Part shown: positions 1 through 4,803 of the stretch, one piece after another
Layout of the letters: each line of letters starts with the position of its first letter
Position numbering within the stretch: the stretch's first letter is position 1
Source of the DNA: a virus
Taxonomy: Duplodnaviria; Heunggongvirae; Uroviricota; Caudoviricetes
IMG/VR virus record: IMGVR_UViG_2713896785_000008
Length of the DNA: 4,803 nt
Direction: 5' to 3' (one strand)
Translations under genes and position numbers: made by a program
The notes under the pieces: model-generated
Told to the model about the DNA's origin: nothing
The model's database searches: none
The model's input: the letters and a program-made list of their open reading frames with translations, nothing else

Positions 1-719
1 CGACGTTTGGGGCGTAACATAAAAGACTCCGGCGACTCCGGATCCACTTTCAGCGCCAGCACCTTTTTCGCCTTATCCTGGATGATGCTGGTGGCAGTAA
101 CCGAAGGCACAAGGTCACTTTCCCGGGTGACAGACGGCACAACAGGCTTCGGTAATCTCAGTGCCTTACGGGCTGCACTTTCCGGTAAGGCATACGCCAG
201 GTCATTACGAATCAGCCACCAGCACAGTTCCGGCATTGTCACAACGTGACTATCATCAAAACCGAGATCCCGACGCACAACAGACAACACCCAGCGGGCA
301 CAGTTATCCGTTGCCATTGCTTCCAGCCGTTCCGTGAACTGATCGCGCAGCTGGTTATCGCAGTGCCAGCACAGACGGATTGCGCCCGGAGCGTGTCGCA
401 TTGTGGTCATGTTCTCGCTGTGCCAGTCGGAATGAGGCCACTGGCAGCCTTTTTCACGAAGTAACCAGCTTTCAAGACATTCCACGCCACCAGCACGACG
501 GATCACCGCCTCATGGCGGAACACGGCCCGAACGGCAGGATCATCCGCCAGCGGTTGTGATGCTGCCGGAACGGCACCACTGGCAAAAGATGAATAACGT
601 TCCGGCTCAGGCTCCAGCAGGACACGCCCCTGCATAAACAGGGGCATCAGCTCTGAACCTGGTCTGAACAAGACGATCCCCATACGCGGGGCAATTTCAG
701 GGGTCAGCAGTGCTCTCAA
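1..719 (-). CDS. Hypothetical protein, 3'-truncated by the window edge; Cys/His cluster weakly suggests an HNH/NinG(Rap)-like nuclease
   Basis: The minus frame is open from 728 down to position 1 (no stop in window, hence absent from the ORF track). Candidate starts: TTG 719-717 with GAGG 7 nt upstream (overlapping the upstream TGA), ATG 683-681, or ATG 410-408. Translation includes ...GCQWPHSDWHSENMTTMRHAPGAIRLCWHCDNQ... Start choice is uncertain. Confidence 0.45.
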   Translation of the reverse strand, partial: MRALLTPEIAPRMGIVLFRPGSELMPLFMQGRVLLEPEPERYSSFASGAVPAASQPLADDPAVRAVFRHEAVIRRAGGVECLESWLLREKGCQWPHSDWHSENMTTMRHAPGAIRLCWHCDNQLRDQFTERLEAMATDNCARWVLSVVRRDLGFDDSHVVTMPELCWWLIRNDLAYALPESAARKALRLPKPVVPSVTRESDLVPSVTATSIIQDKAKKVLALKVDPESPESFMLRPKR

Positions 720-1259: not shown

Positions 1260-2019
1260 TCAGTGAACGGTATCGAGCAGCTTTAACAGCTCAGGGAATC
1301 GGGATTCGAAGAAATGCGGCTGCGTNNNNNNNNNNNNNNNNNNNNNNNNNNNNNNNNNNNNNNNNNNNNNNNNNNTCGCGCTGCTCGACGATCCCCAGTT
1401 TCACCATCTGGTGATATGCCTGATTAGCCGTCAGGCGTATACCATACTGTTTCAGCAGTGCACTCAGTGACAGTGTCGGGCGGCTTGAACCATCTGGCGC
1501 ATCAGCAGGTGCATCAATGGCATAGCTCGGCATAAGTTCAGGAAGACCTGCTACCTTTGATAATTTCTGGTATGCACCAAGTTTCGAGGAGTTTGACAGA
1601 TTTAGAGTCTTTGCTGCTGATTCAAGCAGAATGACCCCGGATTTAATTTTGTCGGATGTGGTTTCTTCTGGTGATGAATTATGAAGCGCATCAAAAGTAC
1701 GTATCACTTTTAAGCTGAATGCCGGGCTGATCCACATTGCATATGCATAGACCAGCTCTTTACAGACATACGTCCCACCATTGCGCCCCTGAATGGTGAT
1801 GACAGGAATACTACGGGAATCTCCCGTAGTTTCTTCTTCCAGTAATTCCACAAGAGCCTTCGTTTCAGGACGACGCATAAACTCGTGAACTTCCAGCGAA
1901 CGGGAGGAGCGATTCTCACCAGCGGCAAGAAGAGCAGCTTTCTGAAGGTCGTTAAGACAGTAGTTAGATTCAAAGTACTGGCGCACAGAAACGCCATCAA
2001 TTACAAGCAACTGATTCAT
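1260..2019 (-). CDS. KilA-N domain protein (antirepressor/Roi-like), interrupted by a 50-N run
   Basis: ATG 2019-2017 preceded by GGAG at a 6-nt spacer (GGAGaaaccaATG). Translation MNQLLVIDGVSVRQYFESNYCLNDLQKAA...RPETKALVELLEE...IPVITIQGRNGGTYVCKELVYAYAMWISPAFSLKVIRTF fits the KilA-N/APSES-type pattern. The track's longer start at 2115 adds a K/S-rich extension with no RBS. The 3' end is uncertain because of the N-run at 1326-1375: the track frame stops at 1291, while an alternative frame (...FPELLKLLDTVH*) stops at 1262-1260 directly on the RBS of the next gene. Confidence 0.6.
1326..1375. other. Run of 50 N (assembly gap or masked bases) inside the KilA-N gene
   Basis: Directly visible. 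50 is not a multiple of 3 and the true length is unknown, so reading frame across it cannot be trusted. Confidence 0.95.
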
Positions 2020-2105
2020 TGGTTTCTCCACAAATTTCGGGACTGCACTCCCTTTTCGTTGATGCAAGATGAACTTACTGCGATTTTTAATAGTTATCAA
2101 GGATA

Positions 2106-2125
2106 CACTGTTCATAAATACAGTA
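2106..2125. promoter_or_regulatory. Consensus LexA (SOS) box in the promoter region of the KilA-N gene
   Basis: caCTGTtcataaatACAGta matches CTGT-N8-ACAG with an AT-rich centre; on the minus strand it reads TACTGTatttatgaACAGtg. It lies 87-106 bp upstream of the KilA-N ATG in a 150-bp AT-rich intergenic region. Promoter-like hexamers nearby on the minus strand: TGAACA-16 nt-TATTAA, or TTGATA-17 nt-TAAGTT. It is the only CTGT-N8-ACAG match I found scanning the window by eye. Confidence 0.5.
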
Positions 2126-2170
2126 TCTTTAACGAGGTAATACCCAAATTTAGGGTGTTGCTCAATTCCG

Positions 2171-2378
2171 TTACCGAGTTGCTAATTTGCAACTCGCTTT
2201 TTCGTACTTACTGATAGTGATCTCGACCTTCCCTTCCGGGATAACCGGTCCCCACTCCACCAGNNNNNNNNNNNNNNNNNNNNNNNNNNNNNNNNNNNNN
2301 NNNNNNNNNNNNNNNNCCTTTGTTGGGGTGTCGCCAGTACGTGTTCACGCTGGGCGGAAAAGGCAGGATCAGCTTCAT
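2171..2378 (-). CDS. rusA: RusA-like Holliday junction resolvase, interrupted by a 53-N run
   Basis: ATG 2378-2376 overlaps the upstream TGA (ATGA coupling). N-terminal translation MKLILPFPPSVNTYWRHPNKG matches the RusA N-terminal motif (LPWPPSxNxYYRH). After the gap, ...VEWGPVIPEGKVEITISKYEKASCKLATR* matches the RusA C-terminal region (...PVTKGGRLELTITE...). Stop TAA 2173-2171. With 53 N the two parts are out of frame and the protein would be about 68 aa against about 120 for RusA, so the N-run probably under-represents the missing sequence. Confidence 0.55.
2175..2204 (+). terminator. Perfect 8-bp inverted repeat (CGAGTTGC-taattt-GCAACTCG) followed by CTTTTT on the plus strand; terminator-like hairpin or operator
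   Basis: Stem 2175-2182 / 2189-2196, loop 2183-2188, T-tract 2197-2202. The T-tract follows the stem only on the plus strand, where no gene is supported. It lies inside the 3' end of the rusA-like ORF, so function is unclear. Confidence 0.3.
2264..2316. other. Run of 53 N (assembly gap or masked bases) inside the rusA-like gene
   Basis: Directly visible; see the rusA-like feature for why its true length is probably larger. Confidence 0.95.
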
Positions 2379-2701
2379 ACTTTCAGGCCCCTCTCATGTA
2401 ACCAGTGGGTTGCACGCAGCCTTGCGTTTTCCTCACCGGCAAGCAGTGAGTGGATAATCCCGACCGCCTCGCTGTCGTCGTCCTTCACCGCGGTATGAAG
2501 CGTTATCCCCCGGGCCACGCCACGCTTTATCGTGATGACGCCTTTTTTCTCCAGTGCGCGAAGATGCTCTACCGCTGCATTCACTGAACGGTATCCCAGC
2601 ATGGTTGCCACCTCCTGATTGGTTGGCGGAAAGCCACGCTCTTTCTGATAAGAAATCAGCATATCCAGCACCTGCTGCTGGCATTGAGTTAATGTCGTCA
2701 T
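2375..2701 (-). CDS. LexA-like DNA-binding protein: LexA N-terminal winged-helix domain only, no S24 peptidase domain
   Basis: 108-aa ORF. MTTLTQCQQQVLDMLISYQKERGFPPTNQEVATMLGYRSVNAAVEHLRALEKKGVITIKRGVARGITL aligns from residue 1 with the LexA DNA-binding domain as I recall it ([68 protein letters not shown]), including the recognition helix RS-NAA-EHL-AL-KG. The remaining ~40 aa are unrelated and there is no Ala-Gly cleavage site or Ser/Lys dyad region. ATG overlaps the methyltransferase stop (ATGA at 2698-2701). Confidence 0.75.
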   Translation of the reverse strand: MTTLTQCQQQVLDMLISYQKERGFPPTNQEVATMLGYRSVNAAVEHLRALEKKGVITIKRGVARGITLHTAVKDDDSEAVGIIHSLLAGEENARLRATHWLHERGLKV

Positions 2702-4447: not shown

Positions 4448-4786
4448 CTATTTCCCTGAATTTACGACGAAACTGTTCGAGCGGACTGAAGCATTCATGT
4501 TCATAGCCTTCACGGAGGTAGATAACCCGTTGTGTTTCCGGCTCCCAACGAATGACTCTGACGGGCACTCCGTAGTGATCTTTGAACCAGCGGTTAACTT
4601 GTCGCAAAGGACTGTCTCCTTCTGCCGGTTGAAATCACCCACAGCCCACTCTGCAAAGCTGTGGGTTACAATTTCCCTGTCACCTGGTACATTCACTGCA
4701 TAGCAATACTCCACCTTCGCTTTTCCACCCGGTACAGGAAGCGCAATCAGTTGCGAGCGACGGTAGTGTGTTGTTAAACTGTTCAT
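4448..4786 (-). CDS. Hypothetical protein upstream of rep (112 aa as drawn; frame of the 3' half uncertain)
   Basis: ATG 4786-4784 preceded by GGAGA at a 9-nt spacer. TAG stop 4450-4448 overlaps the rep RBS. The N-terminal ~58 aa look coding. The C-terminal half is Ser-rich and is overlapped by a more protein-like alternative frame (TTG 4607 to TGA 4395); see findings. Confidence 0.4.
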
Positions 4787-4803
4787 GCGTTAGTTTCTCC
4801 ACA

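Follow-up and report, generated by a model that had tools for sequence, protein, structure and literature searches.

Gene content of the window

The DNA analyzed here is a stretch of 4,803 nucleotides (nt) from the IMG/VR virus record IMGVR_UViG_2713896785_000008 (the whole of which is called the window below), and its main point of interest is a LexA-type (SOS) box situated in the non-coding spacer between rusA and the gene of a KilA-N domain protein. The window stems from a lambdoid prophage of the SfIV, PhiR49_1, or CPS-53/e14 kind and covers a portion of its early-right or nin-like region. The strand assumed in a prediction made earlier from the same sequence (the original prediction) is corrected here, as all genes of the window are located on the minus strand. 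In the direction of the genes, the order is YmfM-like plus DUF4222, O-like, dam, lexN, rusA, spacer, KilA-N gene, ORF171, and DUF968 gene (Table 1). Intact relatives, such as those of E. coli E2863 and the O104:H4 strain C227-11, show the order dam, lexN, rusA, spacer, KilA-N gene, DUF968 gene, and Q. Two runs of N interrupt the window sequence, one within the KilA-N gene (positions 1326 to 1375, 50 nt) and one within rusA (positions 2264 to 2316, 53 nt), and they correspond to approximately 106 and 240 nt, respectively, in the closest relative. Since these runs hide additional sequence, the frames and lengths of open reading frames (ORFs) that extend across them are unreliable, and rusA only appears truncated in the raw ORF list.

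Table 1. Features of the window in the order in which they follow one another along the gene strand (aa, amino acids; P_kil, predicted promoter of the KilA-N gene)
Feature	Position	Strand	Basis or remark
YmfM-like ORF and DUF4222 ORF	4786-4395	-	
O-like replication gene	4438-3446	-	
Phage Dam methylase gene	3351-2698	-	PF05869
lexN, encoding LexN, a 108-aa protein consisting only of a LexA N-terminal domain	2375..2701	-	Pfam PF01726, E = 3e-19
rusA, upstream gene	2171..2378	-	Stop codon 2173-2171; alignment to PhiR49_1 and annotation
Terminator-like hairpin and T run	2175..2202	+	Inside the 3' end of rusA; consensus scan; ~0.4 expected by chance
Non-coding rusA/KilA-N spacer, 151 nt	2170-2020		From the rusA stop codon (2173-2171) to the KilA-N ATG (2019-2017)
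Weaker candidate promoter TTGAGC-17-TATTAC	2137..2165	-	Upstream of the box; read from the sequence
LexA (SOS) box, 20-mer	2106..2125		Core CTGT-N8-ACAG at 2108-2123; about -60 to -41 of the predicted promoter
Predicted -35 of P_kil, TTGATA	2095..2100	-	5 bp past the box; conserved in relatives
Predicted -10 of P_kil, TAAGTT, 17-nt spacer	2072..2077	-	Conserved in relatives
Leader stem-loop GGGA-GTGCAG-TCCC	2039..2052	-	Invariant xTGCAG loop, covarying stem
Shine-Dalgarno region TGTGGAGAAAC	2022..2032	-	GGAG at 2029-2026; just 5' of the ATG (2019-2017)
KilA-N domain protein gene	1260..2019	-	Pfam PF04383; intact homologue in PhiR49_1; PHROG 129; AlphaFold2 model
ORF171, 171 aa	729..1244	-	PHROG 2539 (unknown function); ORF list; between the KilA-N and DUF968 genes
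DUF968/HNH-type gene (ydfU family), 5' part	3..719	-	PF06147; PHROG 96; runs off the window

A candidate LexA operator in the rusA/KilA-N spacer

The spacer contains the palindrome CTGTTCATAAATACAG (plus strand), which is the only exact match to CTGT-N8-ACAG in the 4,803 nt and in whose center seven of eight bases are A or T. The surrounding 20-mer reads CACTGTTCATAAATACAGTA on the plus strand and TACTGTATTTATGAACAGTG on the gene strand, and 86 nt separate its end from the ATG of the KilA-N gene. Scoring with a LexA matrix, a check suggested along with the original prediction, was performed using a symmetrized and approximate matrix derived from 28 E. coli LexA sites. With this matrix the box attains 21.8 bits, a value within the range of the training sites (12.8 to 26.8 bits) and near that of the recA and sulA sites (22.3 bits); the second-best LexA-like site of the window reaches 6.7 bits. 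The box has a value of 5.5 on a scale resembling the heterology index (HI), which is not directly comparable with published HI values, those of functional Salmonella boxes being roughly 1.5 to 13. A score of at least 21.8 bits has a per-position probability of about 1e-7 at the base composition of the spacer, and it was not attained in any of 20,000 first-order Markov simulations of this stretch. The SOS box with an AT-rich center described in the original prediction is thus borne out. Judged by its sequence, the palindrome is a near-perfect candidate LexA operator, and binding of LexA to the 20-mer is likely.

Occurrence of the box in related loci

The spacer was found in 186 of 5,426 complete E. 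coli genomes (3.4%), including O111 Shiga toxin-producing E. coli and the O104:H4 outbreak lineage, as well as in five phage records of the SfIV and PhiR49_1 types; Shigella phage SfIV carries the cassette around the spacer. The spacers of E. coli and these phages exist in two nearly invariant forms which differ by an 11-nt indel (CTCGTGGATAA) located between the leader hairpin and the Shine-Dalgarno region (window positions 2037-2038 versus positions 4541-4580 of locus L001). The window possesses the short form, in which the lower stem of the leader hairpin lacks its 3' arm, and 143 of the 186 spacer-bearing E. coli genomes match it at only 90 to 95% identity, as the long form does. Because the E. 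coli spacer is useless for footprinting, homologues were taken from other species. The comparative set comprised 46 loci with full-length KilA-N homologues (46 to 67% protein identity), one genome per species and 245 kb in total.

Fifteen positions in the 245 kb scored at least 13 bits, and 10 of them are located 75 to 157 nt upstream of a KilA-N start codon, an interval that makes up less than 2% of the sequence. These 10 sites originate from nine genera of Enterobacterales, i.e., Citrobacter, Raoultella, Rosenbergiella (two sites), Serratia, Pantoea, Enterobacter, Superficieibacter, Edwardsiella, and Erwinia. Three further loci have sites of 12.8 to 12.9 bits in the same interval, and several others contain degraded boxes there in which the promoter-proximal CAG is retained. 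Specifically, the proximal half-site CAG is always kept, and the distal half reads CTG, GTG, or TTG; an imperfect distal half is also a property of the E. coli dinG and recN sites. The sequences flanking the boxes of the relatives often could not be aligned with the window. As a LexA-type palindrome is kept despite this divergence and in two geometries (see below), selection for its presence can be argued, and the recurrence of LexA-like boxes at the same place in other genera lends further weight to the claim that an SOS box is situated in the promoter region of the KilA-N gene.

Predicted promoter of the KilA-N gene

The promoter P_kil was identified solely from an ungapped stack of spacers taken from diverged relatives. 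The stack displays a common order consisting of the box, 4 to 5 nt, a -35 hexamer, a 17-nt spacer, a -10 hexamer, approximately 8 nt, a stem-loop, 10 to 20 nt, the Shine-Dalgarno region GTGGAGAA, and the ATG. The -35 hexamer of the relatives is TTGAAA, TTGAAG, or TTGAAT at a fixed distance, corresponding to TTGATA in the window, and the -10 hexamer is TAAGGT, TAATGT, or TATGGT, corresponding to TAAGTT; the sequence between the two hexamers varies, and its length is constant at 17 nt. Hexamers kept at a fixed spacing around variable sequence constitute the pattern of a working σ70 promoter. The transcription start of P_kil is predicted near position 2065, which would set the box 20-mer at about -60 to -41. 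According to the original prediction, the box overlaps the promoter hexamers; instead, it abuts the conserved -35 on the upstream side, with 5 bp separating its end from this hexamer.

A different geometry is found in an Erwinia locus (L118), where the box lies over a strong -10 (TTGCCA-17-TATATT) in the classical layout and directly precedes the leader hairpin. The weaker candidate promoter of the window upstream of the box, TTGAGC-17-TATTAC, is specific for the window type and would set the box at about +6 to +25; it was given little weight because the same stretch is rusA coding sequence in the relatives. The motif of the Shine-Dalgarno region, TGTGGAGAAAC, recurs ahead of the start codon in several other genes of this phage type, in the window also at positions 4793-4803 and in locus L003 at positions 2330, 3748, 6186, and 9145.

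A conserved hairpin in the leader

A stem-loop precedes the Shine-Dalgarno region of the KilA-N gene. In an alignment of 19 diverged leaders, 86.8% of the cells were paired and 17 cells showed double changes, and none of 500 shuffles scored as high; the stem features compensatory substitutions and G-U pairs. Hairpins with a TGCAG loop are strongly biased to the sense strand (42 versus 9). The hairpin is located approximately 30 to 50 nt upstream of the KilA-N ATG in loci L007, L045, L046, L084-L104, L108, L118, L123, L126, and L133, and it is also present in SfII-type loci that are devoid of the box and the promoter. In relatives from Proteus and Morganella the loop reads TGTACGG or TATACGG, and some loci from Pantoea, Erwinia, and Rosenbergiella contain two tandem copies of the hairpin. 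An Rfam search with the spacer and five of its relatives matched the leader hairpin to no family.

Similar hairpins were observed elsewhere. At yfdP, a CGACC-TTGCAG-GGTCG hairpin lies between an upstream TGTGGAGAAAC and the ATG, and at yfdR, a GCGC-GGTGCA-GCGC hairpin is situated upstream and is followed by TGTGGAGAAAC. With TGCAG hairpins upstream of both genes, a repeated site comparable to nut/boxB was considered, but the loop differs in the yfdP counterpart of SfII.

LexN, a LexA-like protein without a cleavage domain

The LexA-like protein that the original prediction placed just upstream of the box was confirmed as a protein with a LexA_DNA_bind domain only, encoded upstream, yet rusA intervenes between its gene and the box. 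LexN aligns without gaps to residues 2 to 69 of LexA and matches LexA chains in the PDB with E values of about 1e-15. It retains S39, N41, A42, and E45 as well as the wing residues R64 and G65, which we take to be the residues contacting CTGT and the DNA in the LexA-DNA structure. Whereas the winged-helix DNA-binding domain and the recognition residues are common to E. coli LexA and LexN, the latter ends at residue 108, lacks the Ala-Gly cleavage site of the linker, shows no S24 match, and scores only 71 bits against TIGR00498 (cutoff, 111 bits). Consequently, LexN is not a LexA orthologue and is not open to inactivation by RecA*-stimulated self-cleavage. In the AlphaFold2 model of LexN, the wing of the winged helix is followed by no more than two short helices. 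Taken together, the sequence and the model make it plausible that LexN is an uncleavable binder of SOS boxes.

The distribution of LexN among the loci was compared with that of the box. Six loci have a box with no LexN within 2.5 kb (L090, L096, L098, L099, L103, and L118), and six have LexN and no box (L088, L089, L092, L094, L046, and L059), by which a strict coupling of the two was rejected. Loci with a GTGGAT distal half-box mostly carry a diverged LexN, and the recognition helices of these diverged proteins do not account for the GTG half-sites. Because the presence of LexN does not track that of the box, host LexA is the simpler primary ligand. The proposal that the box is a target of host LexA, the phage mimic, or both is narrowed accordingly: the mimic may serve as a second ligand, with no strict co-occurrence.

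A different arrangement was seen in Edwardsiella anguillarum (L114, positions 1240 to 1440), where a LexA N-terminal-domain-like ORF is located directly downstream of the KilA-N gene rather than upstream. Both the KilA-N gene and this ORF would lie behind a box of 19.4 bits.

The KilA-N protein and the CI repressor

The identity of the gene behind the box as a KilA-N gene was upheld by a match to Pfam PF04383 (residues 10 to 114, 57.8 bits versus a gathering score of 23.8, E = 1.1e-15). The intact homologue of PhiR49_1 comprises 271 aa, and PHROG 129, to which the KilA-N protein belongs, is labeled "transcriptional regulator." The C-terminal 157 residues match no Pfam family even at E ≤ 10, the NCBIfam search with the protein yielded no match, and no ANT, KilAC, or Tum-type domain was detected with Pfam, NCBIfam, and PHROGs. 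The AlphaFold2 model, with a predicted local distance difference test (pLDDT) value of 74, displays the KilA-N domain, a helical linker, and a small α/β C-terminal domain. Neither the PDB sequence search nor the comparison with the PDB using Foldseek gave anything significant; the weak fold matches were DNA-binding proteins, i.e., winged helices of the MarR and PadR types and the APSES domain of yeast Mbp1.

The cI gene is situated outside the window, and CI was therefore analyzed in three prophages sharing the cassette (those of E2863 and O104:H4 C227-11, and PhiR49_1). All three CI proteins contain a Peptidase_S24 domain (E = 6e-19 to 2e-27). As the CI proteins of these three prophages have a self-cleaving S24 domain, a dependence on an antirepressor of the 186, N15, or Gifsy type is unneeded. 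The antirepressor reading of the original prediction was not supported, given that the KilA-N domain alone is recognized, that the PHROG label is "transcriptional regulator," and that CI bears S24. The Pfam (C-terminal half, E ≤ 10), NCBIfam, PDB sequence, and Foldseek searches yielded nothing significant in favor of an antirepressor identity, and we regard a DNA-binding regulator as the most likely identity of the KilA-N protein.

Near-consensus SOS boxes were also noticed within the cI coding sequence, approximately 210 to 230 nt into the ORF, where a LexA site would not be expected. They are located at positions 8792-8811 of L002 (SfII) and 3832-3851 of L155 (the O104:H4 C227-11 prophage) and read TACTGTATATAAAAACAGTA (26.5 bits) and TACTGTTTTTACATACAGTA (24.8 bits).

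Probable transcription unit and further features

The original prediction had two further genes following the KilA-N gene on the same strand, and these are ORF171 and the DUF968 gene. ORF171 is absent from PhiR49_1 and E. coli E2863. In the relatives, the DUF968 gene follows the KilA-N gene after 7 nt, the spacing also seen in PhiR49_1 and E2863, and Q follows after another 13 to 17 nt. No convincing sense-strand terminator was found between the KilA-N, DUF968, and Q genes of the relatives. Owing to this tight packing and the lack of a convincing sense terminator, a P_kil transcript would very probably run into DUF968 and Q.

Several features of the window and its relatives lie apart from this unit. 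At the opposite end of the window, the YmfM-like ORF (112 aa) and the DUF4222 ORF (70 aa) overlap in different frames; YmfM of e14 is reportedly an SOS-inducible division inhibitor. Besides the terminator-like hairpin in the 3' end of rusA, a second plus-strand hairpin with a T run and a 9-bp stem lies inside the KilA-N ORF (1810 to 1840). Both oppose all genes, and nothing obvious is transcribed on the plus strand. Downstream of Q, the first codons of a DNA methyltransferase gene overlap with a strong SOS box, TACTGTAAAAATA[AT][AC]CAGT[GT] (22 to 24 bits). This box was seen at positions 13441-13460 of L155 and in L088, L103, and L121, approximately 2.5 to 3.2 kb downstream of the KilA-N start, and is present in several genera.

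Proposed control of P_kil by LexA

On balance, we favor the reading that host LexA has a working operator upstream of P_kil and that DNA damage relieves P_kil independently of CI, and we consider it probable, with considerable room for doubt. In a lysogen, LexA bound beside the -35 would keep P_kil low, probably by occupying the zone of the RNA polymerase α C-terminal domain and by crowding the -35. Upon DNA damage, RecA* would drive the cleavage of LexA, and P_kil would open without cleavage of CI. The resulting mRNA would start with the stem-loop leader and encode the KilA-N protein, followed in the window by ORF171 and DUF968; in the relatives, the order would be KilA-N, DUF968, and then the Q antiterminator.

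Several points weigh against this reading. The spacers of E. coli and the known phages are nearly invariant, which makes footprinting among them uninformative, and the 46 loci from other species are related, so that the enrichment of sites upstream of KilA-N overstates their independence. In many relatives the box is weak, the distal CTG being replaced by GTG or TTG, and in SfII-type relatives, whose protein is 70% identical, the junction between rusA and the KilA-N gene measures 19 nt and has neither box nor promoter; LexA control is thus optional for the KilA-N gene family. The LexA matrix is an approximate one. A consensus promoter scan of positions 1900 to 2400 gave no promoter, P_kil being below its stringency, and the -10 of P_kil is poor, with three of six matches. 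Moreover, the SOS genes of E. coli do not typically have their operator at -41 to -60, for which reason repression of P_kil could be weak; repression from this position is less certain than the binding of LexA.

Among the alternatives, two are unlikely to a similar degree. In one of them, LexN rather than host LexA is the main ligand, and in lytic growth it closes the box and perhaps SOS boxes of the host as well; having no cleavage domain, it would act once host LexA is destroyed, either alone or after it. The gap-free alignment with retained recognition residues, a modeled winged helix with a short C-terminal helical pair that could dimerize, a gene that belongs to the same operon and lies approximately 250 nt before the box, and the diverged LexN proteins at most GTGGAT loci speak for such a role, but an isolated LexA N-terminal domain is a weak DNA binder, the box of the window is a near-consensus host site, and box and LexN occur without one another in six loci each. 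The other alternative accepts that LexA binds but assigns little or no regulatory effect to it, the site being a passenger or in decay and the KilA-N gene being transcribed by read-through of the early-right operon. This would fit an operator outside the core promoter, the degraded boxes of several relatives, the SfII-type relatives that manage with their short junction and no box, and a CI which is itself SOS-cleavable and would make additional LexA control dispensable. It fits less well with a box that was retained or arose anew in no fewer than eight diverged sequence groups and in two promoter geometries, with the neighboring hexamers conserved at fixed spacing, and with the fact that the box of the window is the best of the whole family.

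Two further possibilities carry far less weight. The box might control a plus-strand promoter of a short, oop-like antisense RNA ending at the hairpin in the 3' end of rusA, as that hairpin and its T run lie approximately 50 nt beyond the box and TACAGT within the box resembles a -10. We regard this as very improbable, since there is no acceptable -35 at 16 to 18 nt, the hairpin is located inside the rusA coding sequence and is not conserved outside the window type, and one such hairpin per 500 nt is near the number expected by chance; the absence of conserved antisense hexamers in the relatives led to the rejection of such a promoter. That the palindrome is simply a chance match is hardly credible: the spacer has a G+C content of 38% and short palindromes are common in such DNA, but neither the probability per position nor the simulations described above agree with chance, and other genera likewise have LexA-like sites at this position.

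Relation to known systems

LexA-controlled prophage modules as such are already well known. The closest layout is that of the SOS locus of the Salmonella prophages Gifsy-1, -2, and -3, which comprises a LexA box, a dinI homologue, and the antirepressor gene gftA, gfoA, or gfhA (Lemire et al. 2011, PMC3121763). The two layouts share a LexA box that has its own promoter (a predicted one in the window) and that lies, within a lambdoid prophage, downstream of the replication genes and not in the immunity region; they also share a palindrome ahead of the box and several same-strand genes after it. The Gifsy loci encode a DinI homologue along with a small antirepressor, whereas here a 271-aa KilA-N protein is encoded that shows no similarity to known antirepressor families in Pfam, NCBIfam, and PHROGs, the comparison being confined to these databases and not made directly with the Gifsy, 186, and N15 proteins. 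The Gifsy prophages need an antirepressor because their repressors are not cleaved, unlike the S24-bearing CI proteins of the cassette-bearing prophages, and the palindrome ahead of the box in the window is not oriented as a sense terminator, its T run being on the opposite strand. The LexA-antirepressor layout invoked in the original prediction therefore stands as regards the resemblance to the Gifsy locus and the position outside the immunity region, the box being located between rusA and the KilA-N gene. The assignment to the class of antirepressor modules fails on two features, i.e., a non-cleavable repressor and an antirepressor-related product.

Tum of coliphage 186 and AntC of N15 are cited as precedents of LexA-controlled antirepressors (Lemire et al. 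2011, PMC3121763). As with Tum (p95) and AntC, a prophage gene would here be tied to the SOS response via a LexA operator and not via repressor cleavage, but a dependence of induction on the KilA-N gene is unlikely given the self-cleaving CI. The protein shares 37% identity with the N terminus of P1 KilA, and the KilA-N match likewise lies in the N-terminal 110 residues; the C-terminal half differs and is common to entries named "DNA-binding protein" from phages of Klebsiella, Pseudomonas, and Paenibacillus. P1 kilA is under the control of C1 and not of LexA. The position of the KilA-N gene is similar to that of roi of HK022, which lies just upstream of Q, but DUF968 intervenes before Q.

With respect to the location of the operator, a precedent is provided by the promoter PrstA of CTXphi, at which LexA is reported to repress by blocking the RNA polymerase α C-terminal domain (Quinones et al. 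2006, J Biol Chem 281:39407). At P_kil, the box is predicted at -41 to -60 and has an AT-rich center. The systems differ in that CTXphi is a filamentous phage of Vibrio at whose promoter RstR acts alongside LexA, whereas P_kil is a predicted promoter. The LexA operator of PrstA reportedly lies directly upstream of the -35, where an UP element would be involved. A prior description of the rusA/KilA-N box was not found in the searched literature on KilA-N, LexA and the SOS response, phage LexA homologues, antirepressors, Roi, and the SfIV genome.

Biological significance

Prophage genes under LexA control set the timing and manner in which a prophage wakes and let one prophage influence others. 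If P_kil is SOS controlled and reads into Q, DNA-damaging antibiotics would raise Q directly in the cassette-bearing prophages, which have late regions resembling those of Shiga toxin (Stx) phages. Two points are open to testing: a LexA DNA-binding domain that is proof against cleavage is encoded beside the cassette in thousands of E. coli prophages, and the leader hairpin is conserved and matches no Rfam family. A far-reaching and unlikely extension would regard the cassette as a CI-independent, LexA-gated route to the late-gene switch, combined with an uncleavable LexA surrogate of the phage and a leader that docks an unknown regulator acting at the RNA level. If this were true, damage would cause transcription of KilA-N, DUF968, and Q from a still-repressed prophage, LexN made from the early operon would later re-occupy the box and host SOS boxes after the loss of host LexA, and the UGCAG-loop hairpin would dock a further, RNA-level regulator of the operon. 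The significance of the cassette would grow if P_kil feeds Q, if LexN is a cleavage-proof surrogate of LexA, or if the leader hairpin represents a new regulatory RNA.

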